From positions 62,001-112,534 of the forward strand of contig MU271267.1 of assembly GCA_021432655.1 (NCBI GenBank): a DNA stretch of 50,534 bases, written 5' to 3'. The notes beneath the pieces are model-generated. The model was not told the origin of the DNA, searched no databases, and saw nothing but the letters and a program-made list of their open reading frames with translations. Source of the DNA: Atractiella rhizophila (Eukaryota). The position numbers and the translations under genes were made by a program. Positions 5,247-49,879 of the stretch are shown here, piece by piece. Each line of letters begins with the position of its first letter. Position 1 is the stretch's first letter.

Positions 5247-6380
5247 CACAAGTTCGTGGCCTGCTGATAATAACATAAGTTCTGATCGTGTATTGTCGAG
5301 AAGTCATTCATCTTCCACTCCATTTCACCATACAATGTGACTCCTTGAGTAAATACTTTAGTGCAGCCCTAGACACAAGAGGGAGACGGACCAGGGCTTT
5401 CCTATGCAAGCTTGTTCTTAAGGTGACCGGTAGCCAAAGAACCTGTTAAGTAATGAATCAGCATGTACATGCAAATTTCGTTTGATTGCCATTCACACGT
5501 ACACCTTTGAACCATCAGATGGGCAGTAAAGCTGTCCTTCATTCGGTTGATACGAGTGGTTGGATTGATGGGCTGACTTTGCCGGAAAGCTAAGGTGGAG
5601 GTGGAGTTAACAAGCCTTGGAGACTGACGGACGGGGAGACCTTGTGGAGATTGGCCAAGAGGAGGAAGATGGTAGAGGGAATCTGTCATCAATGTCGTTG
5701 GGGACTATACTATGTCATGAAAGGCCGCGCGATCGCTTTGCTGGAAGCTGCTACTAGAAGCGTGTTGGTTAGCAGTCCATTCCACATCGTGAATAGAAGA
5801 GACAACAAACCAGAAAGAATTGTAAAGCACCTCCTCTTCACCCTAGGTTTTGTGCTGTGGCAGGCATGAACATGTACAATCCATAGAATGAAACTAACAC
5901 TGATCCCACCATCTTCACTCACGTCCCATCCCCACATTGAGAACCGCTACAGCGCTGATCACAATTGACGGTGACTGCTTCTTGAATATCCTCAAGAACT
6001 CGAGACCACATTGAAAGGAAAGAACGGGAAGGAAATTCCATCAATTTCCAGCTCAGCATGAGAAAATCTTTCTTCATAGTTATCGGACTATGTGCATGCA
6101 GGAAAATGCGGGAACTTTGTCTGAATTTGCCGCGAAAAGCTAGGAATAAGGGGAAATGTCGGAAAGGACTTTTGACAGGGGCTGACCAGTCACATTTTTT
6201 TTTTCAAGATGGCAATCGAAAGCTTGAATTGGGTGAATCATGATAGGTTTGGATGAGAACTGAGAAAGTGCAGGAAGGATGAGATTGAGGACTTTATGCG
6301 GAGGATGGGTGACAGGATCACACATCTCAGTGCAGATAATGTGGAGGACTCATCCACTTCAGCCTCAGCAGGCCTTTACT

Positions 6381-8029
6381 TAGGGATGCACAATGGGTGG
6401 TAACGTGACGGGTGGAGGATGCTATGTGAGCTTCTTCATGTCAAGTAAAGGCATGCGGTTGTGTTGAGGCAGCATCTAAGGTGAGGGCCGCACGTCGAAG
6501 GAACACGTAACGGGGTCGTAAGGGGTTTAAGCCTCACGTCTTGTAATATTGTGCTTACTGAGCTAAATAATGTAAAATAATGTACAGAATGAGTTTAAGA
6601 AATCGAAGAGCAAAAGTTCTGAGCAAAGAATTCCGACGTAAACATCGACACGAACATTTCAGCTCCCTTCTGCAATCACAGCCGAAGCAGCCTTTAGTTC
6701 CCTTGCCTTCCAATCTCTCTCCAATCGCAATTGAGCCTTAAGGACCATTAGCGCTTGAATTGTGTCTGGTTTGAGGCGTGCACGGCGGATCCCTATTGTG
6801 TTGTGTGCTCTGCTGAAGACACGCTCGACAGCCACGGAACAGCCTTCATATAATAAACAATCATTAGTCTTGTGAGCTTGCACTAACATGATGAGAAGGT
6901 GAATGTAACGAAAGACAGACCTGGAATAGAGAGGATGTGCCTTGCCATCTGAGACCACTCCTTCAAATCTGTTTTCGACCGCACACAATAAATCTCCAAC
7001 GGATCCTCCGCCCAGTCCAATGGAGGAAGACTGAACCAAAGGATCGGTTGCCGATCCTCATCCTCATGAAGCACCTTTCCTTATTGATTTGCCTTCTGCA
7101 TAAGCTTTGCTGAATATGTGAGTGGTGTTGCTGCAGACATTAGAACGTGCTTGAAGGATTCGGAAGGAGAAGAGGTGTGGGAAGATGGTGGTTGGCTTTT
7201 ACAAAGATAGTTGGTCATGATGAAAGGGGCAATCACCATCTTCATCCCTGCTGGAGAGCTGTTTCCTGAGCACCTCGCACATCTTGTAAAGCCACAAAGT
7301 CATCTAAGACAACAAGTAATTGAGTTAAAATCAGGATGAGAAGAGCGAGAGAAAACAACTGTACATAGTCTTTGTCCGGTCATATGGTTGTAACGGCGGC
7401 CCTTAAGACTTCCAGCTCATCATAACCGGGAATGGTTGAATTTCTATGATGAAGAAAATATCGAGTCAACATTGGCACAGGGAGACGGCAGAATGGATAG
7501 ACATACACCTCCTGTTCCCGTTTCTTTCTCTCTCTCACACTGATTGCCATTCCTTCTTCGTTATTCCTCTGTACCATGTCCACCAATTTGATTTGTCTGG
7601 CTGGCTTTGATGGGGCCGTGTTGCGAGACTGACAATTAGACGAAGTCGTCCAAAGGACATGGCACTCTTTTATCAATGGTCAGGATAGGGAGGCACTGGT
7701 GGAACTAGTCAGCTCTTGTTCGGTGAGAATATTCTGGAGGTGGTTTGACTTACATTAGAAAGGCAGCGTCACACACCGTGAACACAGAGAAATCTCCAAT
7801 CTTCTGATCATACCAGGCACACTGCCACACCAGCTAGCAGGCACAGTTGGAAGCTTGACGTATTGGCGGACGAAAACGGTAATGCCTTCCTCTTGCCTGC
7901 CGCACGTTCGTTAGGTCACGTCGAAGATGCGTGCGGGAGAGACGGGTTCCTTTGTGCTAGGCACCCGCCAAAAAAAGACGGGAACGTCGCACGGGTTCCG
8001 AACCCGTCCCGCCCCATTGTGCATCCCTA
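6381..8029 (-). mobile_element. Non-autonomous (internally deleted) hAT DNA transposon, 1649 bp
   Basis: Perfect 17-bp TIRs TAGGGATGCACAATGGG (6381-6397 and 8013-8029); 8-bp TSD CCTTTACT (6373-6380 and 8030-8037); subterminal ACGGG/CCCG repeats; internal hAT dimerisation-domain remnant. Confidence 0.95.
6659..7074 (-). pseudogene. hAT transposase C-terminal dimerisation-domain remnant with one intron
   Basis: DPLEIYC...WSQMARHILSIP[intron 6920-6844, GTCTGT..GACTAAT..AAG]GCSVAVERVFSRAHNTIGIRRARLKPDTIQALMVLK. The splice restores the typical hAT motif SIPxxSVxVERVFS. Confidence 0.88.
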
Positions 8030-8625
8030 CCTTTACTTATCTTCTCGCCTGAGATACCTATACTTGTCCAAACACCCGCTTCTTCCATTGCTCTCCCTCC
8101 TGCATACCCTTAAGAACCTCCACCTCTCCAATACGTGTCCACTCCCTTCCTCCATCTCAGACTGTCCTCTTGCCGCCTCCTCTGGAGTATGTCAACATCG
8201 AGCTGGCCCCCTTCTCTGCCAATGGAAAGACGACCATCCTACCCACTCCACTCGACTTCTCACACCTCACACAGCTCACCAAGCTGTTCCTCGACGGGGG
8301 CGAAGAAACATCAAACCTTGTTTCCACTCCGTTCTTCAGCAGACTCACGAATGCAATGGGCATAAAGCTGATAATACTCCAGTACTGTGTGGTGGACTCG
8401 TTTTACTTCCCAGACTTCATCCGCTGGTTCTTTGGAGATTGGCAGGTGAGCGACGCTGAGAAGGGGGATCGGAAAGGTGGGAGGAAGATAGGGGAGCGTC
8501 TTGAGGTTCGTCTATTCTTTGGAGAGTGGAGCGAGGAGGAGATCGTGATTGCGAGGAGTATGATGCAAAAGTACACAAGGAGCGAGAGATCAGGTATTTG
8601 GGAGCCTGGGAAGGGGGAGGAATGA

Positions 8626-9740
8626 TGTGGAAGGCACAGTCTGATTCAGGCTCCACCTCCAGAGCTACTAGATCAGACGCTGCACTCTCACATCGCTCTG
8701 AGCAGCCCATGATTGATGGAGGTGGCCGTGAACATGAAAGAGTTCGCGAGGGGGGCTTGTGCACTCGTTTTGCTAGCCAGCCAAATGCTCAGGTTACAAG
8801 TTGGGAGGATACCACTAGGGCAGCCCGACATTCCCAATCCCCAACACCTTCAGCACAGTCATAACCTCTTCCACCCTATTTTTCCTTCCCCCATCTCCAT
8901 CCACGCCGCTAGGGCCGAATGGTTGAGGGGCAGGATATAACACAATACACCAATCCGCCGCACCTTTTGAGCCTCTCTTTCTTTTCGACGGAACAGGTGC
9001 CTTTGGAGAATTCTAGGTCCGCTTCTGCGAGCCTGAATGGAACGGTAGTTGATAAAGCTGCTGGACTAGGAGATGCAAAAGAGTGGGGGATGCTGGATGC
9101 TTTTGGAGAGGATGAGGGGGAGAATCGGACAGGATGGTGGCTGCTCGACTTCTTCTACATCTGTAGGCAATTCTCAATCCAATCTTCGGAATGGTAGAAC
9201 ATAAAATACTATTGTAAAGAAAGAAAGGAGGCAGGCTTACCTCGATTGACTCTTGTGGCAGACACTCCACCACAGCAGTCTTTCTGATTCCCATGACAGT
9301 AGATTATTCATTACACTCCAACACAAAATCTCCAAATCTCATGACCCCTTCTAAGGCCTTCATCAGCTTTACCTCCGCCACAAGCGAGGCAGTTCGACTG
9401 CATTCTTACTGACAGCATGAAACCCATCCTCCGTCGTCTTCTTCCAGGTTTTGACACCTTCTCCGCTGCCTCCTTACTCCCTCTGGCCTCTAGCCACATG
9501 TGGGGATCATGCAGTGCGCTGTGTTGTCGCTGACTCACTTGAGAGAAAGGTGAGGCGTGTGGAGGAGAATGGCGACAGAAGAACCTCCTCCGCGTCAGCT
9601 GGACTTATGCGGCGCTGGAGTCAGGTGTACAATGCGGGGAAGGAGCTCGAAGGAGAGAAATAGGGGATGGAAGCCGGAGGAAGATTGAGGGGAAGGGGCG
9701 AATGTGTCGCAACGCATCGATTACGTCACTTAACTTGACA
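8626..9740 (+). repeat. 3'-flank segmental duplication shared with ~30261-31590
   Basis: Near-identical text after the stop codons of copies A and E (tgtggaaggcacagtctgattcaggctccacctc...). The E flank has an extra ~250 bp at about 30466-30714. Confidence 0.85.
9161..9730 (-). pseudogene. HSP104: Hsp104/ClpB-type disaggregase 5' fragment (into NBD1 Walker A), copy 1, with intron
   Basis: Degenerate reading EDGFHAVSKNAVEL...GK.D...KTAVVECL.Q..VNR, then intron 9240-9161 (GTAAGC...CTACAG), then DV. This matches the Hsp104 pattern AEEGFDALxKYAVDLTxLAxEGKLDPVIGR...GKTAxxEGLAQRIVNRDV. Confidence 0.7.
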
Positions 9741-13329: not shown

Positions 13330-13767
13330 GCTTCTTGATTCCAACTTGTCCATCAGCCAGATTCAACGTCCGTTCCCCAAATTGCTCCGTCGAATCGCCC
13401 ATTCATTCACAGAAGGTCAATTCTCGACGTCCAAACGAACCAGATGTCCTCCACTCTGACTTCGCAGTTCTCCGCATCGAATAAAGGCATGCCACACACT
13501 TCTATCCCCATTAACGAAGCGATACATCAATTTCGCCATTCTCTACGAAGTGTTTATCCAGGTCGTCTCACAGCTCAAAGTTTGGCACTCGGTTCACCTT
13601 CTTTGACAATCCTCGTCACAGCTTCGATCCCGTCAAGAGGAGGAGGTAAGGAGGAAGTTAAGTGAAGCTGATGACACCACCCAGGCATGATTTCATCTCC
13701 TGCTTTGGCTTTCTTCGTCTCATCCAACATGGGTTATGGATTCTAGTTTGCTGCCTCTGCTCGAACA
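13330..13767 (+). promoter_or_regulatory. Conserved ~430-bp upstream block (putative promoter/5'UTR) of the F-box/LRR genes
   Basis: Anchor tcttgattccaact at 13333, 19282 and 47832, each about 410-435 bp before the start. Variants of caggcatgatttcatctcc lie ~80 bp before the start in copies B, D, E, F and H. Function is inferred from position only. Confidence 0.45.
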
Positions 13768-15423
13768 ATGACGGAGCAGCAAACAGCTGGCCTTTACCGC
13801 GGCTCTCGTGCACCAAACTTGACGGCACTTGTCCATGTCATCACCCCACGCTACATGTCATCGATCCACGTGTCCATTCTTCCCTCTTTCCTAACTTGCC
13901 TCCCTGCATCAATTCACACGCTCCAGATTTCCTTTACCTTATCGCGATCATTGGGGAGGTGGGAACTTGAAGAGATGTCATCAAAATTGTCTTATTTATC
14001 ACTTGAGCAGGTCAAAAATGGACTCCACAACGATGGTACAATCAACCTTCACATTACTATCGACGCCGAAAGTGTCTCAGTAACCTTTTTTGACGTTGAA
14101 GGTCAAGCGTCGACTGTCGAAAGAGACCTCAAATCAGAGGTCGATCCGCTTGCTTCATATGGGGATTCATATACTCACACATTTCCTTTCTTTCGCGAGA
14201 ATGCCATATTCGCCCCCATTGCCTCATACTCCCAACATGAAGAACGCTTCCTCCCCGTCAGTGAGGACGAATCGTCACCCCTCCCATCCCTACCAACAAT
14301 TAGCATCATCCAACTCTCTGTCCCACCTCCAGACGCTATTCCATTCTCCATCTCGTGCTTGCCTGTGGAGCTCCTCTCTCTCATATTTAGTTTCTTCGAC
14401 AATGCTTCCACTGTCTCTGACGTATCCAAGCTCTGGAGGGAAGTTTCAGCTCCTTATTGGGGTGAACCTGATTCTGTGGTGGAAAAGTATGAGCGGTTGA
14501 AACGCTATCCTGGTGCTGGACGACTGTGGGACAGGCTGCTATTGGACGAAAGCATGGATGTTGGGATGGCGAAAGAGGTCATCGCAGGCTCGCCGGGTGT
14601 GACGATGGTGCGAACCGATGCATTTTGGAACGAAGAGGAGGCGAAGATTGTGTTGAACGCAATCGAACGCTTGAAACGGGTGGATGATGTCATGTTTGGA
14701 AGTGGTTCTAGAAAGTGGAGGAAGGAGGAAATCGAGACCTTTACGCGGAGGATGGGTGACAGGATCAGATTGCTCACAGTCGACGACGTGGAGGACTCTC
14801 CCGTTTCAACTTCAGCAGGCCTTTACTTATCATCTCGCCTCGAACACCTAGACCTCTACAACTACCTGCTTCTCCCGTCGCTCTTTCTCCCACACACTCT
14901 CCTCTATCTGTGTCTCTCCGATCTATGTCCTCTCCCTTCCTCCATCGCAGATTATCCTCTGCCACCTCTTCTGGAACAACTCACACTCGTGCTGACCCCC
15001 TTATCCGCTGATGGAAAGACGTCTGTCCTACCCACTCCGTTCGACTTGTCACACCTCACGCACCTCACCGCCATAAGCCTTGACGGGGGCGAAGAAACCA
15101 CAAACCTCGTTTCCCGCGAGTTCTTCAGCACCCTCAAAAATGCAACGGCGATATACCGGATAATACTCCGGTACTGTGTGGTGTCCTCGCTTGATTTCCC
15201 GGACTTCATCCGCTGGTTCTTTGGGGATTGGCAAGCAAGGGGAGCTGATAGAGGGGATCAGGAAGATGGGGGAAAGATGGACCGTCACCTCGAGGTTCGT
15301 TTATTCTTTGGAGAGTGGAGCGAGGAGGAAATTGTGATCGCGCGGAGGACGATAGGAGAATGCACAACGGGTGAAACGAGGCGGCGTTCAGGTGTTTGGG
15401 AGCCTGGGGAAGGGGACGTGTAG
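13768..15423 (+). CDS. F-box-like/LRR protein, copy B (551 aa, intact, intronless)
   Basis: Uninterrupted ATG-TAG ORF. F-box-like ISCLPVELLSLIFSFF..VSDVSKLWREV near aa 195-230, followed by LRR-like units (LEHLDL, LPHTLLYLCL, LPPLLEQLTL, LTHLTAISLDGG). Confidence 0.85.
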   Translation: MTEQQTAGLYRGSRAPNLTALVHVITPRYMSSIHVSILPSFLTCLPASIHTLQISFTLSRSLGRWELEEMSSKLSYLSLEQVKNGLHNDGTINLHITIDAESVSVTFFDVEGQASTVERDLKSEVDPLASYGDSYTHTFPFFRENAIFAPIASYSQHEERFLPVSEDESSPLPSLPTISIIQLSVPPPDAIPFSISCLPVELLSLIFSFFDNASTVSDVSKLWREVSAPYWGEPDSVVEKYERLKRYPGAGRLWDRLLLDESMDVGMAKEVIAGSPGVTMVRTDAFWNEEEAKIVLNAIERLKRVDDVMFGSGSRKWRKEEIETFTRRMGDRIRLLTVDDVEDSPVSTSAGLYLSSRLEHLDLYNYLLLPSLFLPHTLLYLCLSDLCPLPSSIADYPLPPLLEQLTLVLTPLSADGKTSVLPTPFDLSHLTHLTAISLDGGEETTNLVSREFFSTLKNATAIYRIILRYCVVSSLDFPDFIRWFFGDWQARGADRGDQEDGGKMDRHLEVRLFFGEWSEEEIVIARRTIGECTTGETRRRSGVWEPGEGDV

Positions 15424-16330
15424 TCGTGAGGGCGCAACGGGGCTTGACGCCGGATTCCGGACTGCTCACTCTCACTCTCAGTACTCGACGACAGTTTGTG
15501 GACAAGACAGAACCCTCTTCTCCGACCATGCTACCATTTAGTTTGCGACGATTTGGGATTGTACCAGATACCGGCCATCAACTGCTGCACAGGGCAACAG
15601 AGAGTGGCACCTTGCCGCGAATCCGAAATCAAACATCATTCACGCCGCTGGCATCGTGGGTGAAAGGGAAGAGGACCCTTGTTTTTCTTAGGATCGAGTC
15701 CAAAGGATTAAAGGTAGTGCGTCTGTAGGGGATTTTAAACGTATGTTGTTCAAAGAACAACCGTGATCGAAAGGAAGGACGTCTGCTTCACCTGTTGATG
15801 CTTTGGATGGCTAGAGTTCCTTACTGTTGCCTTACATCTAAGTTGAATAATGTAGATGGTCCATAGAACTTTGGACTGAGCCAGTGCCCCTCCCCTCACT
15901 TGCGAGGCGCGCTCTTTGCCTGTTATATAATATTTCTACCAAGCTACATCAAATCTACTCTGTCGAATTGAGAGACGAAGAGTCAAGTTGAAGATATAGC
16001 AGGCTCTGCCCGCATCGAGTCACCGTTTGATGTGACATCGCCAAAGTAAAGCTTCAAAACTTGTGCGGGATAGCAACATGCGAGTTGTGCTCGATAAATG
16101 ATCCCTCAGCTGCTTCGGTAACAGCATTACGGTGTTGAACATAAGATGAAATCGGCGTGCATAGTTGCATACATACAGACATAACCCCATCCAATGATCG
16201 TCATAACTCACTTCTTAGTGATCTTTCATGACCTCTACCATCAGACCGCCCCCATTCACACCAATTCCCTCCACACTTAGCAGCTCCATAAACCCGAAGA
16301 GAGGACGTACCTGGAGGGAAACTCTGCTTG
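15424..16330 (+). repeat. 3'-flank segmental duplication shared with ~41443-42235
   Basis: Near-identical text (gtcgtga.ggc.caacgggg...gaataatgtagatggtccatagaactttggactgagccagtgcc...) follows copies B and G2. Confidence 0.85.
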
Positions 16331-17054
16331 AGCAAACACGGGAGTCTAAGGTATTTCGAGGATCGGATCTTGGACGTGGTGACCGGCGGAATCGAGGGCT
16401 TTGGAGATCTTGGTGGTGGAGGCGACTGAGGCTTTGGCGTTTACGCGGAGATATGTGCGCTTTATGCGAGCAGCTGCATTGTGGTGTTACCGGTTGTATA
16501 TGTAGGCGAGGGGGAAGGAAGGACCTTTGGCATCTTTCGTTGAGCAATTCGAGGAGCGTGTGCTGGAGATTCCTATACGCACAAAATGGCAAACGCAAAC
16601 TGCTCAATCTCTTTAATTCCCCCTTCGTCACCAATCTAATGTCAACTCACAAGAGAGCAGAAGTCTTCCGAGGCTAACTTGAGTTCCCACTGGCAAAATC
16701 TTCAAAAGGGTATGCACCGTACTGTCTACTCCTCCCGATTATTCTTGCTCTAATCATTTTGACATGATGTCCATGAAGCTGTCATGAGCTTTGGAAGTCG
16801 ATGATCGGTGAGGGAGTGCGGGATGAGTGGAGCGGCTAACTTTGCAGCGCGGAAAGCGGGATCAACAAACGAGATCGACGACGTCATTCAAGCACTCGAA
16901 ATCCGACGACGCGTTGCTCCTGCATCAGAGTCACAGCGCCCAGCTCACCCAGCGCCTCCCTCGATTCGCCTCTCTGCACACTCAAATCTCCTACATATTC
17001 TATGCTGTCTCCTTCGCCTTCACTTTCGCTCTCGACATGTCTCACCTGACGTAC

Positions 17055-17749
17055 CAGTGCTCCCACCATTACACTATAATGGTAGGGTCCGTAATGGTAG
17101 GGTCTTCTAATGTCAAAGTTAGCACTATAAGTGTAATGTCAACGCAAAAAATATTATAAAATGCTGTTAATGTTAATGTCATTACATTATAAGGCATATA
17201 AGGATTAAAATGCCGTTCAAATATGGAAAGAGAAGATATGAGGTTCTAACCTCATAAAAACCCATAGGAACCATGTCTTCTATCAAGCATAATGGAAACT
17301 AAGACCTTTCACATTGTTCTAAGCGAATTCTGGCTGCTCTTACCTTTGCGACAGTCATTTAGCCATTCTGCAACCTTAAAAAGGGCGAAATAATGCATAA
17401 TGTCAGCGCTGGAGCTATGTCCACAACAATTCACAAGTATTAAAGTATTTGAAAGCCATTTTTGGTCGGACTTTCTGAAGATGCATCTGCAAAATTAATG
17501 TCATTTTAGGCATTATAAGCATTACTTTGTCACATTTTCATCAGTTTTAGGCTGCTACAAGGACTTTTACAGCCCAAAGCATTATAAGCATTGTAAGCAT
17601 TAGTAACATTATGTTCACTCAGGCGTTAATGTAAATGTCATTACTCAAGTAAGGTGAGTAGTGATGGAAACATTAACTTATAATTTAATGTGTTTAACAT
17701 TAATTACTCGGCATTAACCACTACCCGTAATGTAGTGGTGGGAGCGCTG
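17055..17749. mobile_element. hAT-type MITE (695 bp, AT-rich, non-coding)
   Basis: Imperfect TIRs: CAGTGCTCCCACCATTACA versus reverse-complemented CAGCGCTCCCACCACTACA. 8-bp TSD TGACGTAC at 17047-17054 and 17750-17757. Many TAATG repeats on the left and CATTA repeats on the right. It interrupts module M. Confidence 0.9.
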
Positions 17750-28507: not shown

Positions 28508-28602
28508 TGATTCGACCTACGCGTGATTTCATCTCCACCTTTGATATTCTTTTTCTTCCTAACATGGGTCATGGGTCCCAGTCTGCTATCTCTTCTCAAA
28601 TG

Positions 28603-31054: not shown

Positions 31055-31620
31055 CTGTAGACAATTATCAATCCAACCTTCTGAATGGTAGAACATAAAA
31101 TACCATCGTAAAGAAAGAAAGGAGGCCGGCTTACCTCGATTGGTGCCTCTCTGTGCCAGACACTGCACCACAGTAGTCTTTCCGATTCTAGGTTCCCATG
31201 ACAGCAGATTATTCATTTCACTCCTACACAAAATCTCCTAAATCTCATGACCCCTTCTAAGGGCTTCATCCAGCTTTACCTCCACCGCAAGCGCCGCATT
31301 CTCATGGACAGCATCGAACCCATCGTCCGCCGTCTTCTTCCACCTTTCGACACCTTCTCTGCCGCCTCTGGCCTCTAGCCATACGTGGATATAATGCAGT
31401 GCTCTGTGTTGTCGCTGACTTGCTTGAGAGAAAGGCGGGGCGTGTGGAGGGGAATGGCGACAGAAGACGTCGTTAAGGCGTACAATATGGGGAAGGAGCT
31501 CGAAGGAGAGAAATAGGGTAGCCGGAGGAAGATCGAGGGGGACGAATGAAGCGGCTAACGGGAATGCGGCATCGATTACGTCACTCAGGCTCAGCTTGAA
31601 AGGAGTGCTAAAAGATGGTA
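31055..31620 (-). pseudogene. HSP104: Hsp104 5' fragment, copy 3, with intron
   Basis: KKTADDGFDAVHENAALAVEVKLDEALRRGHEI*EILCRSEMNNLLSWEPRIGKTTVVQCLAQRGTNR, then intron 31134-31055 (GTAAGC..CTACAG), then D. Confidence 0.75.
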
Positions 31621-34600: not shown

Positions 34601-34878
34601 TGTCAATAAAGCACGTCATAATCCGACAATGAAACGATCCATCGATCTCTCCATTGTCCTTGATTCTCCCAAGAACTGTTTATCCAGGTAGTCTCACCGC
34701 TCACACTTTGGGACCTCGGTTCAACTTTTTCCTCAATCTTCATCATAGTTTCAACCGAATCGAGGAGGACGGCGTCTGATGACGCGGAAATTCAGGCAGG
34801 ATTCCATCTCCACCTTTGGCTTTCAGCGTCTCATCTGACCTGCTTTATGGGAACTAGGATGTTCTATTTGTGCAAAAG

Positions 34879-36505: not shown

Positions 36506-39301
36506 TCTGGACGGCACAGTCTGATCCAGGCTCCAAGTCCAGTACAAAGCTACTGATCATATTCCTGATTCTCTTATCGCACTCAGCCCATGACTGAAGG
36601 ACATGCCTCGGACACAAAGAACTTGCCAGGAGGACTTGTGGCCACGTTCCGCTAGCAGGCCCAATGCTTAGGTTATGAGCTAGTACGATACAATAGGTCA
36701 GCCCATCAAATATATTACACAGACACTCAAATAACTTTTCCTTATCATTGTGGTTCCATGTCTCTGGGTTGACGAACCCAAAGGGGAAGACAGAATTCAG
36801 TGAGATGCTTCCAATACACTTTGAATTCGTGCAAAAACATATGTCACCAATCATTTTGTGCAACTAAGAACCTGTATAATCTATCTGAGAATGAAGAAGA
36901 GGTCGGTCATATACAACCAAATCCGAACTTGCGTTGAATGTTCAAGACTCCACTTCTTCAATAACAATATACGTCTTGTTGCCTTTATCTTCGTTCACAT
37001 TCATACCGGTTAGAGAGTCCAGTAAGAATGGAGTTGGTTGCCAGTGGGAGGCCACTTGGCTGTTGCACCAGTGAGGAGCCAGCAGAATCTGCTGGTCGAG
37101 GAGCTAGTTTGGGATCAAAGCTATAAACAGCCTGGAAGACTTACTTGTAATTGAAGCGTGCAAACTGACATGGGCTTCACTGCAATGGTCGTGTCCCTTC
37201 AATTCAAATTGTCCATTGTCTGTACCTCTTGCAGCCTCACATCTACGACCAAACTCGCTTCGATACAACGGAAGATGGTTGCTCTCCCCTATCTCGTGCA
37301 GCATGCCCCGGACCATCTCTTCGTACCATCTCTTGCATGGTATGTCACCCATGAGAACGCCTATGATGGCGGAGAAGATCTTACGAGCAGCATGATCAAA
37401 TCTGTTCATCCACCGTCCAAACATGGGAGTCGAATCACAAGTCAGAAACGGTTTGAGTGGTACAAAGCCGCAAGTAGAAAAGCACTTATAGAAAAAGATA
37501 GAAAGGTGGAGGAGTAGAAGTGCAAGGAGCGGAAAAGGGAGGACGAACCTAGATTAGTAACTCTCCACTCTGCTCCCCAGCCTACTCCATCTTCACCAAT
37601 GTGGACCGATTCTCCTGTATTCTTCTACTCAATATAACTTCTTAATCTCGTCGTCCTTTCCGATGACAGGACCTTGGTGCGCTGAAGGTGCATTCTGTGA
37701 GAGTGGGAGCATGGCACTCACCACACCGCCCACCGTTGTCTTCGTGCTTGCCCCACTTTGCCCTGCTTCCATATATATGTAGTCTACTTTCTTCTCTCCT
37801 GCTCTAGTGGTCGTTCACCATCTAGAGCAGGTAGGTCCTGCATTGTATCCATAGTGGTCGTTCACCATCTAGAGCAGAGCCGAACGAGCTTCTCACACAT
37901 TCTTTCACATTCTGTTCAGAAGTTCAAAACCCTCCTGAGCTAGCTCCTCAATACATCCCTCCCAACCATCGACGCTTTCATCACATTCATCATTCTTCCC
38001 GCCTCCTGTCACACTGCTACACCCGAATGATCGAGGGACACGATATGACACCTTGCTCTTCTGCACTATTTGTGCCTTTGTTTTGGACGGAATAGGAATA
38101 GCTTGGTACTTCGGGAGAGTTCCAGATCCGAGGGAAGGGCTACGCTGTCATTTGCGCATTTTTTTGGCACTCCGGCCACTGCCGCGCTTGCCGAAAGGCC
38201 GCCGTCAATTTGTGAAAGCTGTCAACTTGCTTCAAGGAATGGATGGAGCTCGATGGAGCTCCCTCCCTCTCGCAATGGCTAACATATCCTGCTGTAGCCA
38301 CAGCGAGTTCAAGTACTATAGAAGACCTTGTCAATGACGATATCGGCTGACTCTGCTTCCTGTGGGGAGATTTTGAACAAAGACTCTCCGTGGTACTGCA
38401 TTTTAAAAGATAGAAACTGTAACCAGTGCTTAGAATAATGTGGTCAAATAATATTGCATAGTATGAATTAGAACAGCTGAAGCAGGCAAGAGGGACTCAG
38501 GTCTTGTTTCCAAATAATCTCAATAGAAATGGCATGATGTCGGTTGAGTTTAGCAAATAGTTAATCAATACCAACCACTAAGTATCTTCTCAATGGCAAA
38601 GTGTTTACCGCTGTGTCTTGAATGAGAAACCCCCTTTATGTTCAGTAAATGGTTGGGATACATTCAGTCAAGAAGGTCTTAAACGGTCTTCATTTACATT
38701 CTAAAACTGGGCCTTCTCCTCCATTCCACCTCATCCTATGCTACCTAAATCTTCAATGTCTTGAGATAGACTAGTTTCGTCCCAAATCGCATCAATACCA
38801 TCATCCATAAGAAGAGCTTGGCCGTCCGAGACATGCAAATCAGGTTTTCGGCATCATTCCAACATCTGCGCAACTCAGCCTTTGTTCCCACATAGTTAAT
38901 GACAACGTAAACTGCCTGGCAACTCCTTCACCGTCTATCCTAATCAACCCATCGCTCATCGATCTAGGTCTACTCCGTCTCACTTCCTCTTCTTCAATCT
39001 CAATGCCACGATCTGTTCGGCACGGCGCATCGATTCCTCGCTAGTTACAGAGTGTGGTAAGTAGTTCCCATTCATCATTCTCAGCCTGGGAGCGACGGCA
39101 GACGGCGGAGGTGAGGAAGTGGTTGTATCGATGATAGCATTAGAACGAGTAATTAGTAGTCCTGGCTGAGAGGTGAGGGCAAGTGAAAAGCTGGTGAAAA
39201 CCCCGGTCGAGCAGTGGCCGCTCGATCAGCATAGCCCTATGTCCCTCCATACTCTTTCTGCAAAGGAACGATTGTGGGTAGTTGGACTAGGAGATGAAAA
39301 G

Positions 39302-40741
39302 ATGACGGAGCAGCAAACACCCAGCGTTTGCCATAGTTCTCCGGAACCAGACTCGATGGCAGTTGTCCATCTTATCACCCCAAATGATGATCCATATTCG
39401 ATTCACCTCTCCATTCTTCCCTCTTTCTTATTTCACCTACCTCCATCACTTCACACGGTCCGGATTTCGTTTGCCTTGTCTCGATCATTGAAGAGGTGGA
39501 AACTTGCAGAGATTTCACCAAAATTGTCTTATTTATCACTTGAACGGGTCAAAAATGTCGTCGACAAGGCAAGTGTAATCAATCTTCACATTACCGTCAA
39601 TGGGGAAAATGTTACAGTAACCTTTTTGGAGGTTGAAGGGCATCTGTCGGCTGTCAAAAGAGACTGGCTTTATAATGAGCCATACACTCGCACGTTTCCT
39701 CTTCGTCGAGAGAACGCCATATTCGCCGCTATAGCCTCATACTCCGAACAAGAAGGCTTTATCCCCATCAGTGACGATGAAGCGTCATCCCTCCCTTCCC
39801 TCCCTCCCGATAGCATCATCCAACTCTCTGCCCCACCTCGAGATGGTATTTCATGCATCATCTCGCGCTTGCCTGTGGAGCTCCTGTCTCTCATATTTAG
39901 TTTCCCCGACAATGCTGCCACCCTCTCTGATGTGTGCCAGTTGTGGAGGGATGCTTCAGCGCCCTATGGGGACGAACCTAATGATGTAGCGGGAAAGTAT
40001 AAGCGGTTGAAAGGCCATCCCCGTGCCGGACGTCTGTGGAAAGGGCTGGAATTTCACCACAGTGTGGATGTTTGGATGGCAAAAGAGGTCATCGTGGGCT
40101 CGCCGAATGTTAAGACAGTGAATCTGGATGCGTTTTGGAATGAAGAGGAGGCGAAGATTTTGTTGAATGCAATCGAAGGCTTGCAACGGCTGGATGACGC
40201 AACCTTTTGGGGATGGGGTTCGAGAAACTGGAGGAGGAAGGAGATCGAGAACTTCATGCGGCGGATGGGTGACAGGATCAGACGCCTCACAGTTCGCGAT
40301 GCGAAAGACTCTCCCACTTCAGCCTCAGAAGGCCTTCACTTATCCTCTCGCCTCGAATACCTACACCTCCACAAGTACCCGCCTCTGCCATCGCTCTACC
40401 TCCCACGCACCCTCAAGCGACTCGAACTCTCCAATCTATGTCCTCTCCCTTCCTCCATCACAGACTATCCTCTGCCGCCTCTTCTAGAAGAACTCAAGGT
40501 CGTGCTTGCCCCCTTCTTCGCTGATGGAAAGACGTCCATCCTACCCGCTCCATTCGACTTATCACGCCTCACATGCCTCAACTCGCTGTTCCTCGACGGG
40601 GGCGAAGAAACCTCAAACCTCGTTTCTCGTCAGTTCTTCAGCACCTTCAAAAATGCAACTGCGATAGATACGATACGGCTCAAGTACTGCTTGGTGGACT
40701 CATCTGACTGCCCAGACTTCATCCGCTGGTTCTTTGGGGAT
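39302..40741 (+). pseudogene. F-box/LRR copy G1: open from ATG to DFIRWFFGD, then joined through an A16 tract to another copy
   Basis: MTEQQTPS...ISRLPVELLSLIFSF...PDFIRWFFGD, then A-run 40742-40757. The normal C-terminal ~60 aa are missing. Confidence 0.8.
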
Positions 40742-40757
40742 AAAAAAAAAAAAAAAA

Positions 40758-41442
40758 GATCGAGAATTTTGTGCAGAGGATGGGTGACAGGATCAGATGG
40801 CTCAATGTTGACGACGTGGAGGACTCTCTCGCCTCAGCCTCAGCAGGCCTTCACTTATCCACTTGCCTCGAATACCTATGGCTAGCCAAGTACCCGCCTC
40901 TCCCATCGCTCTCCCTTCCACGTACCCTCCGGCACCTCGAACTCTGCAATATGTGTCCACTCCCTTCCTCCATCTCAGACTACCCTCTGCCACCTCTTCT
41001 AGAAGACCTCACACTCGTCCTCGCCCCCTTCTCCGCCAACGGAAAGACCTCCATCCTACCCACTCCGCTCGACTTATCGCACCTCACACACCTCACTTAC
41101 CTGATTCTTGACGGGGGCGAAGAAACGTCAAACCTCGTTTCCCGCGAGTTCTTCAGCACCCTCAAAAATGCAAAGTGGATATGCCGGATAGAACTCCGGT
41201 TCTGCGTGATGTATTCGTCCGACTTCCCAGACTTCATCCGCTGGTTCTTTGGGGATTGGCGGGTGAGGGGGATCGAGCAATGGGTTGATAGAAAGGCGAT
41301 AGGTAGGCATCTTGAGGTTCGTTTATTCTTTGGAGAATGGAGCGAGGACGAGATTGTGATTGCGCGGAGGACAATGGGAGATTGCACAACGGGCGTAACG
41401 ACGCGACGTTCAGGTGTTTGGGAGCCCGGGGAGGGGTACTAG
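40758..41442 (+). pseudogene. F-box/LRR copy G2, 3' half only
   Basis: IENFVQRMGDRIRWLNVDD...GVWEPGEGY*. It differs from G1 over the overlapping region; its C-terminus and 3' flank resemble copy B. Confidence 0.85.
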
Positions 41443-44338
41443 TAGTCGTGAAGGCACAACGGGGCTTGACGCCCGACTCCGGGACGACTGGTCACTCTCA
41501 CTCTCAATACCTGACCACTGGTTGTGGACACCACACAACCCCTTCTCCCGCCATGCTACCATTTCGACTGCGAAGATTTGAGATTGTACCAACTGCTGCA
41601 CAGGGCAACAGAGAGCACCTTGCTGCGAATCCGAAATGAAGCATCATTCACACCGCCGGCATCATGGTTGAAAGGGATGGGGCCCTTTGTTCTTCTTAGG
41701 ATCGAGTCCAAAGGATTAAAGGATTAAAGCTAGTGCGTATGTAGGGGATTTTAAACGTATGCCGTTCAAAGAACAACCGTGATTGGAGGGAAGGACGTCT
41801 GCTCCGCCTGTTGATGCCTCGGATGACTGGAGTTCCTTACTGTTGCCTTACATCCAAGTTGAATAATGTAGATGGTCCATAGAACTTTGGACTGAGCCAG
41901 TGCCGCTCCCCTCACTTGCAAGGCAGGCTCTCTGAGTATTATATAATATTTCTACTGAGCTACATCAAATCTGCTCTGTCGAATTGGGAGACGAAGAGTC
42001 AAGTTGGATATATAGCAGACTCTTCCCGTATTGAGTCACCGTTTGATATGAGATCGCCAAAGAACTTCAAGACTTGTGCCGGGATAGCAATATCCAACGA
42101 TCGTCACAACTCACTTCTTAGTGATCTTGTCAATGACCTCTACCATGAGACCTCCCCCATTCATACTGATTCCTTCCACGCTTAGCAGCTCCATAAAACC
42201 GAAGAGAGGATATCTGCGAGGGAAACTCTGCTCAGAAAGTGGTATCGACAACGTCATTCAAGCATTTAAAAGTCAACGATGCGTTACTCCTTCCGAATTC
42301 CTCAGCGCCACCAGCGGGCTCTTCCCTTCATTCCAACACTGTCCGGCTAGATCTACCATCAGCTCCAAACACCCGCTCGACCGTCCAAACTGCAACTTAT
42401 TCTACTCCAACCATTCTCTCTTCTGCTCCGACACCGTACGGCTCCTCTCATCGTGATCCCGAACTCACTCTCCCCCACGCAAATGTGAACCGCTCTTTGA
42501 CTCCTCACCAACCGCTGCCTCTCTCCACGCGCAAATCCTATCTCCACTCCTACATCTTCTATGCCGTCTCCTTCGCCTTCACTTTGGCTCTTGAGGCGCC
42601 GATATACCGCAGATGGTCCCAGCGCGTACACGAAGTGGATCTACTCGCACTGTAGAGTGAACACCACAGATCTCTCCCTCCCTCTTCCCTCCCCTTCCTC
42701 CTTCCTTTTTATCCAAGTAGCGCTAGAGCAGTCTAGCAGACAAGACGGTTTGGAATATGGCAGAGGTGGAGGTACAGCGGATGAATTGGTCGAGGTGGCT
42801 TGGTGAGGGAGAACGCATAGGAGGAGGCGGGCACGTTTTTGTTTGAAGAATGTAGTGTGCTGAGGAGGAGGAGGGTGAGGACCGTACGGGTGGCGAGTGG
42901 TGGAGAGGAGCGGACGACATCTCACCTCGTACCGTCGGTCCGTTCCTTCGCCTGCAGGGCACCGCGTAACCAATCCCCAGTTTCTCTGTAGGACATTATC
43001 ATGGACGCCTCTCTCCTCAATCGTACTGCACACCCAACATCCTGCCCTCCCCTATCCTCTCTTCTGCCACTTTGTCAACTTGGCGAGGGACACATCGAAC
43101 AACCTACCTTTCATTCCGTCATCCATCTCTCCGACATCCCCTAGCCGGCGCGCTGGAACCATTCGAGGAAAGGCACCCTCATTCTCTAATGACTTTAGTA
43201 GGAGATTGCGGAATTGAGGAGGAGGAGGGGAATTTCGTGGAAAGCAGGAGCAGGTGTCGGATGGGTAGGCGAGTTGAGGAAATGGGAGGATGAGAGGATG
43301 AGGATGGATCGAAGAAGGGTATCGAGGAGCAAACGGAGTCGAGAAGGGAGGTGACATGGGAGAGAACCCGTGCAGCATTGGTGCTGCGTTTTTCAGAATA
43401 ATTTGAGTGCGAGCGGGCGTGATGTGATGAGAAAACGACCAGGCGGCCCTATGGTTGACGAATGAGAGATGGGGAGATGGAACCGGAAGGTAGTACTAAT
43501 CTACTTTCTGGTCGGTCTTCCATACTTTATACTCTTTCGCCTTCACAACGCCGATCCCATGCGATGCGCTGGTGCAGGAAGCAGGATGCAGGAGCTGACA
43601 TTGCCGAATCTCCTGACGCTTTTCCAAAGGGGGACAACTCTCAGATTCTCGTCAGCGGTGCCCGCTTCCCGCAGGATTCACATATGCGATATCGTAGGAG
43701 CGTCAAAGACTGAACCATATGGTGCGTACGCCTTCCTTTCCTAAGACAAGTGGAGATTGAAGATGGCGGCCAGACTCAGACTCTCGACAACTGACCATCC
43801 GACGGATATTTGAAAGATAGCATGCATGCTGCCTGGTGCCCTTCAAGCATTACTCGCATGTAAATGCATATCAACTACAAAACACTATCAGAACGCAGGA
43901 CTCCCCTGCCAAGGGCCTTTGTCACCATTACCGTGACAGGCATAGAACACTCCCCTTCTCCAAGCGCCAACTCCCTTTTGTCATCCATTTTGTAGGAGTG
44001 TCATCTTTCGCGGGATTGTCTGTTCAGGTCTGCATCGCTGCTGCGCTGCTGATAGATGGATTCGTAAACTGTTCATGTATCAAGAGCAGCTTTTGATGAC
44101 GGTCGCCCCTTCCTGCTACCTCTTCGTCCACCGCCCTCAAATGTCACACCAATCCAAATCCCCTCACGTCCTTTGCCGACCCATTCCGCTCACCATCTGA
44201 CCGCCTCCGACCTATACAACAGGTCCTAAGCCGAAGAAGCAGAAGTAACAGAAGCTAGGCACCTATGTTAGCCTCTCCAAACCAATCCGATTGTCCCACT
44301 AACAAGCACACTGTGCTCCTCGACTGAATCTCTTCTGC

Positions 44339-45287: not shown

Positions 45288-45441
45288 GGGTGATCGGGAA
45301 GATGGGAGCAAGATAGGGGAGCATCTTCAGGTTCATTTATTCTTTGAAGAGTGGAGCGAGGGGGAGATTGCGATTGCGAGGAGTACGATGGCAAAGTACG
45401 CAAGGACGGACGGGTCAGGCATTTGGGAGCCTGGGGACTAG
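45288..45441 (+). pseudogene. F-box/LRR orphan C-terminal fragment
   Basis: DREDGSKIGEHLQVHLFFEEWSEGEIAIARSTMAKYARTDGSGIWEPGD*. Confidence 0.85.
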
Positions 45442-48260
45442 CGAAGAAGGCACTTTGCGATTCTCGTACATGTACAACGCGACTGCGCTGACTCTCATAT
45501 CGATTGTGAGGGCTCAGCCAGCCTTCGGACACGCCCGACGTCGCTGAAGGCTTGTGCCATGATTTCACTCATCATGCCTAGCACTTTGATTATGGCCTGA
45601 AAGGGTGCCACTAAGCTTACCCAACTTGGTGCAGAGATCCATCAAAGTTATTGACCGAAAGTTTAGTTATAGCTCATCAAAAATTTGTACAATACAAGAA
45701 TGTTACTGGCATTGCAACTACAACGCAAGTGCTTTGAGTTAGCAGCCACCCCCATCAGTACTTCGAAGGTGACTTGAGCACTCCTTTTGCTAGCTGGGAA
45801 GATGTTTTATATTACGACCTAGGAGGACTCGGGCATGACGTCCAATTAAATGTGAACCAACTTGTTGACAAACAGGACAAAATGTACAATCGCTTGCATT
45901 CCATCTCCGCCACTCTGTCTTCACCGTTACCTTCACTCACCTGACGCGCCACCACCCGACATACTGTAGAACCTCCCAAAGCGCGTTTACAGCAATTTAC
46001 AGTGGATCTACTCGCGTGGCACAACAGCTAACACCACGTTATTGCTCCGCGTCTTCCGTCTCCTTTCTCCTTCCGTTTATCCAGATAGAGCAGCCGGAGC
46101 AGCCCCACATGCAAGTTGGTGAGAGAATGCGGCAGAGGGAAGACAGAGAAGATAGGTTGATCTCGGTTGATCGAGGTGGGTTCGTGGGCGAGACGGAAGG
46201 GGATGATTTGGTTTAAGCAGAACGCATATCCTGCAGAGGAGGAGGGTGAGGACAGTAGGGTGGAGCGGTGGAGAAGGGTCGAAAGCACATGCACCACCTA
46301 CCTACCACCTCTCTGCTCTTCGGCTAGCGCGACATCACATAACCACTCAACGAGTTCTCCGCTGGATTGGCACGAACGACCTCCCTCCGCTTAACCGTCC
46401 TGTACCTCTGCCCCCTCCTTCCGCTTTTACAACTTGGCAGGAACACGCCAAGCGTCCATCTTTCGTCTTCGCGATTCGCCTCCAACTTCCTTCACCCGCT
46501 CGCTGGAACTATGTCGGGATATTTAGCGAACTAGGATGCTTCCTCAAAGGTCCTCTGTAGGAGTGGTAGCGGGCAAGGTTCCGGAATGGAGGTGGAGGAC
46601 ATTGGACGGGAAGCGGGCGTAGACGGGGACGTGGAGAGCTGATGTCGAGGAAATGGGAGGAAGAGATGAGGGCGATTGAAGAAGGATTTCGAGGAAAAGG
46701 CGTCGAGATGAGATGAGGAGTGGGAGACAGGGCTGCTAGCGAAGACGATGAAGCAAGGGTTGAGTGACTAGCTGGCTGCGAATGAGGGATTAGGAGATGG
46801 AACCGGGAATGTTACGCTCCTCGACCACGTTGTTTACCTTCCTTAATGTTGACTTTTTCCTCTCACAATGCTGATTTTATGCGACGCGATGGAGCAGGAT
46901 GCAGGAGTGGGACATCGCCGAAGTTCTGCGCCGTTATCCAAAGGGGACGACGGCCCTCCATGCAAGCATGGCTGTCTTCCTACAGAATCCTCATATCTGT
47001 CGTAATATGATAGTACCAAAGGACGAAACTTTTATTTGTTCTCCTTGCTTTCTTGCGACATGAGGTAAGGGAAGATTGACGATGAAGGTTGGTCTGGGTT
47101 GGTCTTAGTCGCTCCAGAAACTAACCATGCGAAGGCGATTCGAAAGGTGGGGACACCTTTTGCTTTCTCCTGCCCTTCAAGCTTCAAGAGTTACTCGCAT
47201 ATCAACGTATACTATCAACGCACAAAACGTACCTATGCGTCAACGATCCTATTAGAATGCAGGACTTGCCTGTCATCCTAGGTGTACTACCTTTGCATAC
47301 TGTCACTATGGACAAACGGGTACCTATTTCTCTTACAACGACAGCATTGCTTTCTGGCTTCATGTGAGGAGGAAGCTGAGTGTGAAGCCACCTCAATCGA
47401 ACCACATCCGTCCCACCTGCCCCACCAACCGACTTCCCTCAGAGACGCTGGTGACAGGAATACCTTAGAATATCCTGTCTTCTTACTCACTCGCGTAAGA
47501 GCGGCGCGCAGGGAAGGAGGAGCAATTTGCTGCACGTCACTCCGGCTGGTGAGTTGTACACGCTCTAATATTTCGCCCACGTCGTTCTCTTACACCATAG
47601 CCAAACTGAGATTCTCTCCCCTATCCAAGGTCTGCTGAAATTTTGCCGAGCGCGATCTCTCGACTCAGTCAGGCCTCCTTTTGTCCTCCATAAGCAGGTC
47701 TTCCCTGCCTCCCCAACAATCTGTGAGCTAATTCGATTCGTCTTTGCAGCCTGGGAAAGGGGGAGCGGGGAGCATCAAACCAGATAATATTCATGACTGC
47801 AGGTATGGAGGGCTTCCTTGCAAACGCACACTCTTGATTCCAACTGCCAGGTCGAACATCCATTCCCCACATCCGCCACTTGAATCGCTCCATTCATCCA
47901 CACAGGGTTAATTCTTTTCGCCCGACACACAACCAAAACATCCTCCTGCTCGAAGTTCGAGTTCTCCACATGAAATAAAGGCATGCGACCAACTACTGTG
48001 TCCCAACAACGAAAGGATCCATCAGTCTTACCCTTCTTCCACACTGTTCATCCAAATAGTCTCTCACTTCACAGGTTGGGACCTCAGTTCAACTTTTAAT
48101 TCAATCTTCATCACATTTCAATCACGTCAAGATGCGAAGGGTTAGGACGTTCGCGCCCCCTGCTGCTGAGGCAAATCAGGCATGATTTCATCTCCACGTT
48201 TGATATTCTTTGTCTCACTAACATGGGTTTGGGTTCTAGTCTGCTATCTCTTCTCAAAAG

Positions 48261-49879
48261 ATGACGGAGCAGGAAACATCTAGCGCACGCCACCGCTCTA
48301 AAGCTTCAAGCTCGACGGCACTTGTCCATGTCATCACCCCAGGATACAGGTCGTCGATTCACGTGTCCATTCTTCCCTCTTTCTATCCCGCCTACCTCTG
48401 TCAATTCACATGCTCCGGATTTCGTTTATCTTACCACGTCCATTCAAACGGAATTGGGAGCCTGGACAGATGTCCTCAAAATTGTCTTATTTATCACTGG
48501 AACGGGTCGCGAATGCGGTCAACGAGAATGGTGTAATCAATCTTGGCTTATCATCAACAGAGAAAATATCTCAGTAACCTTTTTGGATGTTGAAGGGCAT
48601 GCTGTTGACTCACTTGCTTCATATGGCGAATCATATACCCGCACATCTCCTTTCTTTCACGAAAATGCCGTCTTCACTCCTCTAGCCTCATACTCCCCAA
48701 CGCAAGAGACAGTTCATCCCCATCGGTGACAACGAATCGTCATCACTCCAATCCCTCCACAGAGCGAGCATCATCCAACTCTCTGTCCCACCTCCAGACG
48801 ATACTCCACACTCAATCTCGCGCTTGCCTGTTGAGCTCCTCTCACTAATGTTCAGTTTCCTCGATGGCGCCGAAGCTTCCATTCTCTCTAAGGTGTGCGA
48901 GATCTGGAGGGACGTTTCAGCTCCGCATGAGCGCGAGCCTGAGTCTCTGGCAGAAAAGTATGAGCGGTTGAAACGCTATCCTGGTACCGGACGATTGTGG
49001 GACGGACTGTGGCTGTATGGCAGTTTCAGCGTTGGGATGGTGAAAGAGGTCATCGCAGGCTCGCCGAATGTTACGGAAGTGGTGATGGATGCATTTTGGA
49101 ATGAAGAGGAAGCGAGTATTGTGTTGAATGCAATCGAAGGTTTGGAACGGGTGAATGACGTGACTTTCAGAAAGAGGGGTTCGAGAAAGTGGAGGAAGGA
49201 GAAGATCGAGAACTTTATGCGAAGGATGGGTAACAGGATTAGAGAGTTCAGAGCTTACGACGTGGAAGACTCTGTCCCTTCGGCATCAAAAGGTCTTCAC
49301 TTATCTTCCCACCTAGAACACCTACACCTTCGAAGGTACCCACCTCTTCCATCCCTCTCTCTCCCACGTAGCCTCCTCTACCTGCGTCTCTCTAACCTAT
49401 GTCCTCTCCCTACCTCCATCTCAGACTACCCTCTGCCGCCTCTTCTGGAGTATCTCGAGATTGTGCTCGCCCCATTCTCCATGGATGGAACAACCACCAT
49501 CCTATCCACTCCGCTCGACTTGTCACACCTCTCACAGCTCACCTCCCTGAGCCTCGATGGGGGCGAAGAAACGTCGAACCTCGTCTCCCGACAGTTCTTC
49601 AGTACCCTCAAAAATGCAACCGCGATAAACGAGATAACACTCCTATACTGCGTGGTGGATCCATTCGATTTCCCAGACTTCATCCGCTGGTTCTTTGGAG
49701 ATTGGTGGGTGAGGAGGATGGAGAAGGGGGATCGGTTTGATGGACGGGAGATTGGGTTACATCTTGAGGCTCGTTCCTTCTTCGGAGAGTGGAGCGAGGA
49801 GGAGATCGTGAATGCGAGGAAGATGATGGCGGAGTACAGGAAAAGCAAGGAGTCCGGCGTTTGGGAGCCTGCGGACTAG
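48261..49879 (+). pseudogene. F-box/LRR copy H (frameshifts in the N-terminal domain near 48380, 48540 and 48700; F-box plus LRR part open)
   Basis: Starts MTEQETSSARH; an open 351-codon stretch runs LPVELLSLMFSFLD...GVWEPAD*. Confidence 0.9.

Follow-up and report, generated by a model that had tools for sequence, protein, structure and literature searches.

A tandem birth-and-death cluster of F-box genes with a hypervariable predicted leucine-rich repeat face in Atractiella rhizophila, a candidate repertoire of ubiquitin-ligase substrate receptors

Results

Gene content of the array

We analysed a stretch of 50,534 nt from Atractiella rhizophila contig MU271267.1 (hereafter the window, within which all positions are counted), which holds a head-to-tail array of genes and gene pieces belonging to one protein family. 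An earlier note on this DNA had described about ten same-strand paralogs or pieces coding for F-box proteins with leucine-rich repeats (LRRs), in which a nearly invariant scaffold carries a hypervariable binding face. The open reading frame (ORF) at 19560-21335, copy c3, was used both as the query of a tblastn search against the window and as the reference for residue numbering. The search returned 16 high-scoring segment pairs, on the plus strand only, which group into 11 stretches within 6212-49876 (6212-6385, 8031-8622, 13705-15411, 19560-21332, 27380-28414, 28546-30257, 34834-36496, 39287-40744, 40672-41433, 45298-45438 and 48194-49876). They represent about 10 copies of the gene, between which DNA identity is 72-83% (Table 1). 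The number and orientation given in the earlier note were thus borne out, and the translations of the copies contain the scaffold motifs that it quotes (FWNEEEAKIVLNAI, CPLPSSISDYPLPPLL, LDGGEETSNLVSR and DFPDFIRWFFG) and every strand variant in its four lists.

The picture given there needs correction in one respect, as most of the copies are not intact. Full-length open frames were found only in two of the ~10 copies, c2 and c3, and the remaining eight are damaged by truncation, frameshift or fusion, or are interrupted by a hAT transposon. Copy c6, the breaks of which are treated as introns in the public model P0032, is probably a pseudogene. The C-terminal ORF of c5 is still open, and the ORF left in c10 begins within the F-box and spans the whole LRR domain. 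The homology of c7 to its paralogs begins abruptly at ~39297, and the upstream homology common to the other copies is missing there. Copies c7 and c8 could stem either from a retrocopy that lacks its 5' part and was inserted here, or from an LRR duplication within one gene, with a break at a slippery run of A; a duplicated LRR block resembling c7/c8 is present in the public paralog P0002 (752 amino acids, aa).

Table 1. Family copies, their parts and transposon remnants in the window
Feature	Position	Strand	Description
Transposase_21 (tnp2) ORF	2841-3647	+	Weak match (23.4 bits; cut-off 28.6) at the left edge of the array, probably what remains of a decayed DNA transposon
c1, left piece	6212-6380	+	Reference residues 345-400; in-frame stop; cut off by the transposon insertion
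hAT-type remnant	6381-8029		1649 bp, inserted in c1; perfect 17-bp terminal inverted repeats at 6381-6397 and 8013-8029
hAT dimerisation-domain ORF	6662-7057	-	PF05699, 25 bits (cut-off 21.4)
c1, right piece	8030-8622	+	Reference residues 398-589; frame change at ~8170
c2	13768-15423	+	Intact 551-aa ORF with N-terminal domain, F-box and LRR
c3, spliced 5' leader	17930-19559	+	Introns 18089-18145, 18683-18739, 18906-18979 and 19428-19481
c3	19560-21335	+	Intact 591-aa ORF, transcribed; GC..AG intron 19605-19670; public model P0001 (569 aa)
c3, N-terminal domain	~19743-20246		
c3, F-box	~20277-20381		
c3, LRR domain	~20442-21281		
c4	27389-28507	+	Truncated 372-aa ORF with N-terminal domain, F-box and first LRRs; homology stops at reference residue 387
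c5	28546-30260	+	Full-length homology; frame change near 28840; in-frame stop at reference residue 329; C-terminal ORF of 269 aa at 29451-30260
c6	34834-36496	+	Full-length homology, two frame changes
c7	39239-40758	+	Frame open from the N-terminus as far as ...WFFGD (reference residue 534), followed by an A17 run at 40742-40758
c8	40759-41442	+	C-terminal piece, reference residues 366-586, adjoining the A17 run; 220-aa ORF at 40780-41442
c9	45298-45438	+	Small fragment, the C-terminal 47 residues of the family
c10	48194-49879	+	N-terminal domain destroyed by four stops; 343-aa ORF from 48848

Domains of the family proteins

The proteins begin with an orphan N-terminal domain, which is followed by an F-box and then by a predicted LRR solenoid of ten repeats with a C-terminal cap. 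The F-box of c3 and of its public model P0001 scored 35.9-36 bits against PF12937 (cut-off 24.3) and 28.6-28.7 bits against PF00646 (cut-off 20.5), and 34 of the 44 family members that were aligned matched PF12937 at E<=0.01, in support of the F-box claimed in the earlier note. A sequence profile search against the PDB found F-box motifs only, namely those of FBH1, Skp2, FBXL17, FBXO42, FBXW7 and TIR1, all of them weakly (E 0.0065-0.71). The consensus LPxELLxxIFxF...VCxLW is nearly invariant over the 44 paralogs, in which P222 and W248 are invariant and L221, L226 and C245 are kept in at least 90%. Given the kept consensus, the entropy of the segment (1.44 bits on average over 48 positions, below that of the N-terminal domain) and its ratio of nonsynonymous to synonymous divergence (dN/dS) of 0.53, we concluded that the motif is maintained.

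In an AlphaFold2 model built with the 44 paralogs, residues 260-560 form ten strand-plus-helix/loop units with a predicted local distance difference test score (pLDDT) of ~90. The units repeat at a spacing of 20-38 residues and share a periodic LxxLxLxx core. The Foldseek matches shown for this model were all LRR proteins by title, including COI1, TIR1, D3/MAX2, Dia2, FBXL3 and Rad7, with a best E of 1.6e-4 and template modelling (TM) scores of 0.2-0.5. The C-terminal domain is therefore predicted to be an LRR-type solenoid, as the earlier note had proposed.

The N-terminal domain comprises ~170 residues and is beta-rich; modelled alone it reached a pLDDT of 72 and a predicted TM score of 0.66. 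It had no Pfam match and no fold match, the best Foldseek hit against the PDB having an E of 0.4 and VIA-align giving no Z>=2 among 48,161 chains. A missing fold match is no proof of a new fold. A Pfam match to NACHT or NB-ARC was found neither in the 44 members nor in the 114 ORFs of at least 90 aa that lie between the copies.

Variation on alternating strand positions

We placed the ten predicted strands in the register LxxLxLxx, in which p1, p4 and p6 are the core leucine positions, and computed the entropy of each column in the alignment of the 44 paralogs, where the LRR domain takes up 280 positions. The 30 positions p3/p5/p7 had a mean entropy of 2.86 bits with 11.7 residue types each, compared with 1.48 bits for the 20 positions p2/p8, 0.62 bits for the 30 core positions and 1.09 bits for the remaining 200 positions of the LRR domain, 28% of which were below 0.5 bit. 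The mean for the N-terminal domain was 1.66 bits (168 positions). Among the 280 LRR-domain positions, p3/p5/p7 accounted for 23 of the 30 most variable ones (Fisher p ~1e-21; Mann-Whitney p 3e-15), and all ten repeats contributed to this variability. The residues found there include many D, R, Y, E, H and W. In LRR proteins the side chains at p3/p5/p7 point outward from the concave sheet, and loops and helices are exposed as well. Variation is thus concentrated on alternating strand positions, which LRR geometry would place on the exposed face, while the scaffold is nearly constant. The entropy test puts the alternation of variable residues in almost every copy, as read by eye in the earlier note, far beyond chance.

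Substitution rates at strand codons

Codon models were fitted to 8-9 of the window copies, with a main set of 8 copies and 292 codons, using our own likelihood code for the GY94-F3x4 model; its log likelihood (lnL) for model M0, -4572.78, equals the iqtree2 value. With a synonymous rate shared by all codon classes, omega (dN/dS) was 2.70 at the 30 strand codons p3/p5/p7, 0.90 at p2/p8 and 0.42 elsewhere. The likelihood-ratio test (LRT) statistic against omega=1 at the strand codons was 63.0 (p 2e-15), and the six copies with open LRR frames gave a similar omega of 2.71 with an LRT of 43. Site model M2a was preferred to M1a (LRT 89), assigning 8.2% of sites to omega 5.5. Of the 18 sites with a posterior above 0.9, 13 were at p3/p5/p7, 2 at p2/p8 and 3 elsewhere.

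Pairwise comparisons were made against two further yardsticks. In 27 of 28 pairs the strand codons had a dN above the dS measured at the other LRR codons (median ratio 1.9), and in all five pairs computed this dN was also higher than the divergence of the neighbouring non-coding flanks; coding synonymous divergence was 0.32-0.55, against 0.12-0.33 for the flanks. The core codons, which are interleaved with the variable ones, had a relative rate of 0.82-0.85, so that the excess is specific to the strand codons and not regional. The outward-facing residues have been replaced repeatedly, at two to three times the synonymous rate of the interleaved codons, and the data reject the view that the strand codons evolve without constraint at the neutral rate of their surroundings. 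The Nei-Gojobori (NG86) dN/dS inside the strand class alone (0.51-0.68) was discarded as a measure because most codon pairs of this class differ at two or three bases, where averaging over paths inflates dS.

Transcription and splicing of c3

Runs X1 and X2 are DNA runs and the kind of run X3 is unrecorded. Contigs from X1 and X2 were continuous through 16666-20387, and those from X3 on c3 skipped five segments of 57, 57, 74, 54 and 66 bases, the ends of which were GT..AG four times and GC..AG once. X3 was taken to be RNA-derived solely on the ground that these intron-like segments are missing from its contigs and present in the DNA runs. Copy c3 is therefore transcribed and spliced. Its 66-base intron corresponds to the 22 residues missing from P0001. 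The spliced leader is longer than 1.3 kb, contains four introns and has no in-frame ATG upstream of 19560. The leader contains no long ORF, and part of it (17755-18784) has a second copy at 42605-43611; upstream ORFs or regulatory elements may lie in a spliced leader of such length.

Flanking repeats, transposon remnants and turnover

The non-coding flanks have often been duplicated together with the gene. Segment 8832-9730 matches 30711-31585 at 80% identity, and segment 14731-16079 matches 40759-42093 at 82%. In tblastx comparisons the duplicated flanks were conserved equally across the six frames and are therefore non-coding. A second gene within the inter-copy repeats was considered and ruled out by this equal conservation and by the Pfam search of the 114 inter-copy ORFs, in which two transposon remnants and a few short, low-score matches were found. 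The short matches (IQ, CSL zinc finger and KIAA0319_N) were taken as chance.

The element inserted in c1 is flanked by an 8-bp target-site duplication (6373-6380 and 8030-8037) and is a clean, non-autonomous hAT element, the perfect ends of which suggest a fairly recent insertion. Upstream of c4 lies a tandem duplication of ~390 bp (26017-26406 and 26424-26813, 77% identity), which sits in a C-rich stretch with a GC skew of -0.21 over 26001-28000.

Between paired copies, the flanks 8623-9730 versus 30258-31585 and 15424-16079 versus 41443-42093 have Jukes-Cantor distances of 0.115-0.119, three to four times less than the divergence at synonymous sites of the genes that they flank (0.32-0.44), which is the reverse of the usual order. 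The higher synonymous divergence of the coding parts points to exchange with other paralogs, and the reversed order in these pairs may reflect exchange of the coding parts with distant ones.

Taken together, the damaged copies, the duplicated flanks and the transposon hit support the birth-and-death dynamics proposed in the earlier note. The window is a tandem birth-and-death cluster, in which copies originate by segmental duplication that includes non-coding flanks and are lost by truncation, frameshift or transposon insertion. Several modes of turnover are thereby recorded side by side in the array: duplication of segments, incomplete copies, transposon insertions and mosaic exchange.

Size and taxonomic range of the family

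We collected 58 homologues of 325-1035 aa, of which 57 are named as A. rhizophila proteins ('hypothetical protein') and the 58th is the window's own product. The family numbers at least 58 proteins; those collected lie on 35 contigs, as told apart by length, several of which carry 3-5 members. A HMMER profile search of 1.84 billion cluster representatives gave 109 hits at E<=1e-3, of which 73 reached E<=1e-10 and 43 reached E<=1e-30. Twenty of these matches were looked up: 18 came from A. rhizophila, one was an assembly protein (E 4.9e-9) and one came from Gymnopilus and covered the F-box only. Among the 20 matches checked, no relative outside A. rhizophila was found at E<=1e-10. Judging from these database matches, strong homologues appear confined in public data to the root endophyte A. 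rhizophila.

Pfam searches of 25 distant or fused relatives found a Gag family in none and F-box-like in nine. Four proteins from other contigs of the same species (P0062, P0058, P0071 and P0091) have parts of the family joined to TPR arrays (TPR_10/TPR_12), RhoGAP or SH3; these fused models could be true domain shuffling or merged gene models. In a literature search that covered subscription journals thinly, we came across neither a report on this family nor one on a hypervariable LRR face in a fungal F-box family. The papers naming A. rhizophila among the matches listed dealt, by title, with ecology or taxonomy.

Discussion

Interpretation of the array and its alternatives

We consider it probable, though well short of certain, that this tandem birth-and-death family, with its F-box and hypervariable LRR face, is a diversifying repertoire of substrate receptors for SCF (Skp1-cullin-Rbx1) ubiquitin ligases. 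By analogy with Skp2, FBXL3, TIR1 and COI1, the F-box would dock the protein on Skp1 of the ligase, and the concave LRR face would bind the protein destined for ubiquitination. The paralogs together would then form a set of substrate receptors with many, fast-changing specificities. The SCF function is an inference from this analogy.

A number of our results weigh against this reading, and they bear both on the selection that we invoke and on the assigned function. When the strand class was given a free rate of its own, the fit improved (lnL -4450.3 versus -4457.4) with a rate 2.2-3.3 times higher, and omega became 1.21 or 0.80, neither of them distinguishable from 1 (p 0.44 and 0.46). In codon pairs that encode the same residue, synonymous differences amounted to 0.33 in the strand class versus 0.21. 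The four-gamete test was failed by ~60% of informative site pairs and the nearest paralog shifts along the gene, so that no single tree fits and the copies are probably mosaics (PHI-like permutation p 0.03-0.33); the absence of a single fitting tree inflates site-model tests. The site model additionally picked out nine sites in N-terminal domain loops that align poorly (LRT 40), omega was rather high in the remainder of the protein (0.42-0.72), and decay accounts for part of the divergence, eight of the ~10 window copies being damaged. Most of these results speak for a rival explanation by relaxed constraint, decay and mosaic exchange, in which the variable positions are unconstrained surface residues in a mostly dying family, and exchange, saturation and misalignment mimic selection. 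We regard this explanation as unlikely, because neutrality at the rate of the neighbouring codons is jointly rejected both in the full set and in the six open copies, and because neutral sites cannot outpace the interleaved synonymous sites or the non-coding flanks. Loops and helices, which are likewise exposed, are moreover far less variable, and c3 is intact and spliced. Near saturation and with 8 sequences, rate and omega are inseparable. The diversifying selection asserted in the earlier note therefore stands in part: it is favoured by the shared-rate omega, by the M2a test and by the 13 of 18 high-posterior sites that fall in the strand class, and it is weakened by the free-rate estimates, the mosaic structure and the flagged N-terminal loops. 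Positive diversifying selection is the likely, though not proven, cause of the pattern, entangled with saturation and mosaic exchange.

The molecular assignment has its own weak points. Only c3 clearly passes the Pfam F-box cut-off among the window ORFs, c7, c2 and c4 remaining under it with 24.1, 19.7 and 16.6 bits, and 10 of the 44 members have no match at E<=0.01. In the AlphaFold2 model the F-box segment 213-233 has a pLDDT below 50. Pfam LRR models matched none of six window ORFs (E<=1) and none of the 44 members (E<=0.01), and the LRR assignment for this reason rests on the predicted fold with its modest Foldseek scores. It is conceivable, if quite improbable, that what looks like an F-box is a degenerate relic or makes some other contact, and that the proteins are stand-alone LRR binders, with the N-terminal domain as their effector part; a domain of 170 residues without a fold match is unusual before an F-box. 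The near-invariance of the F-box consensus across the 44 paralogs argues for an adaptor instead, as do an entropy lower than that of the N-terminal domain and the dN/dS of 0.53 in the segment, and an F-box followed by LRRs is the standard layout of FBXL proteins. We give very little credence to a third explanation, in which the family was spread as cargo of transposable elements or by retroposition and varies as a side effect of this spread. The hAT element has disrupted a copy and carries none itself, the copies stand head-to-tail on one strand as unequal crossing-over would leave them, and the duplicated flanks have no frame preference in tblastx. The inter-copy ORFs gave no transposase or reverse-transcriptase match beyond the remnants at 2841-3647 and 6662-7057. 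Although those two remnants, the scatter of the family over many contigs and copy c7, with its missing upstream homology and terminal A17 run, are what mobility could leave behind, this explanation has no account of variability that is specific to certain codons.

Returning to the substrate-receptor reading, one may ask what such receptors would recognise. An intracellular, germline-encoded repertoire in which each paralog binds a different foreign or selfish protein on its hypervariable concave face and delivers it to the SCF ligase to be destroyed would amount to innate immunity in a fungus; this immune role is speculation by analogy, possible but on balance doubtful. Candidate targets would come from a mycovirus, a retrotransposon, a competitor or the host, and exchange among paralogs and pseudogenes could serve as a reservoir of specificities. 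The layout would resemble that of the LRRs of nucleotide-binding leucine-rich repeat proteins (NLRs) and variable lymphocyte receptors (VLRs), with degradation as the output. The alternative label 'effector-like' in the earlier note found no support, as the N-termini have no hydrophobic leader on inspection of the translations, which was done without a predictor.

Comparison with known systems

The closest likeness in architecture is to the FBXL receptors (Skp2, FBXL3, FBXL17, Dia2/Grr1, TIR1, COI1 and D3/MAX2), in which an LRR solenoid comes straight after the F-box. The motif of the A. rhizophila family can be aligned with the F-boxes of Skp2, FBXL17 and TIR1, and the fold search leads to COI1, TIR1, D3/MAX2, Dia2 and FBXL3. 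The known FBXL receptors are, as a rule, conserved single genes. The A. rhizophila family, in contrast, is confined to one species as far as we can see, has a hypervariable concave face, carries an additional orphan domain of ~170 residues in front of the F-box where FBXL proteins have little besides F-box and LRRs, and lacks an LRR match at the sequence level.

The hypervariable, exposed x positions on a conserved scaffold, and the organisation in clustered, mosaic birth-and-death families, recall the LRRs of plant NLR/R proteins and agnathan VLRs. The present family differs in that NB-ARC and NACHT domains are absent, that nothing points to somatic assembly, and that its presumed output would be F-box-mediated ubiquitination instead of oligomerisation or secretion. 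Within fungi, the NLR-like HET-E/HET-D/NWD proteins, which have been proposed as non-self receptors, are likewise intracellular repeat proteins with diversifying exposed positions, in their case of WD40, ANK or TPR repeats. Here the repeat type is another one, a nucleotide-binding domain is lacking, and the variation lies between paralogs and not between near-identical internal repeats.

F-box expansions in Agaricomycetes were reportedly described by Krizsan et al. in 2019. Mushroom-forming fungi of this class have large, fast-evolving F-box families without stable orthogroups, according to the portion of PMC10282164 at hand. That portion covers gene numbers and developmental expression and not a hypervariable LRR face, such as is predicted here.

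The nearest parallel in evolutionary mode is offered by the FTH/FBA and MATH-BTB families of Caenorhabditis and the F-box families of plants, which share with the A. rhizophila family a lineage-specific tandem expansion with rapid gain and loss. Thomas in 2006 and Xu et al. in 2009 are said to be the sources for these expansions in nematodes and plants. An anti-pathogen role of the diversifying nematode and plant families has long been suspected and rarely shown. In the part of PMC8120010 available to us, the lineage-specific tandem F-box expansions of Caenorhabditis and plants are described as being under positive selection in the substrate-binding domain. The family reported here differs from them in its fungal host, in its predicted LRR recognition domain and in the strict xxLxLxx register of its variable sites over all ten repeats. 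If its members are true SCF receptors, they would lend themselves well to studying what is recognised by a diversifying ubiquitin-ligase repertoire, and would allow a test of targeted degradation as a fungal defence. In sum, expanding families of F-box adaptors are known from nematodes and plants, and a fungal form with a predicted hypervariable face is, as far as the literature covered here shows, new; the logic of the nematode and plant families is displayed unusually clearly in this fungus, where 30 positions on ten LRR strands hold nearly all of the variation.

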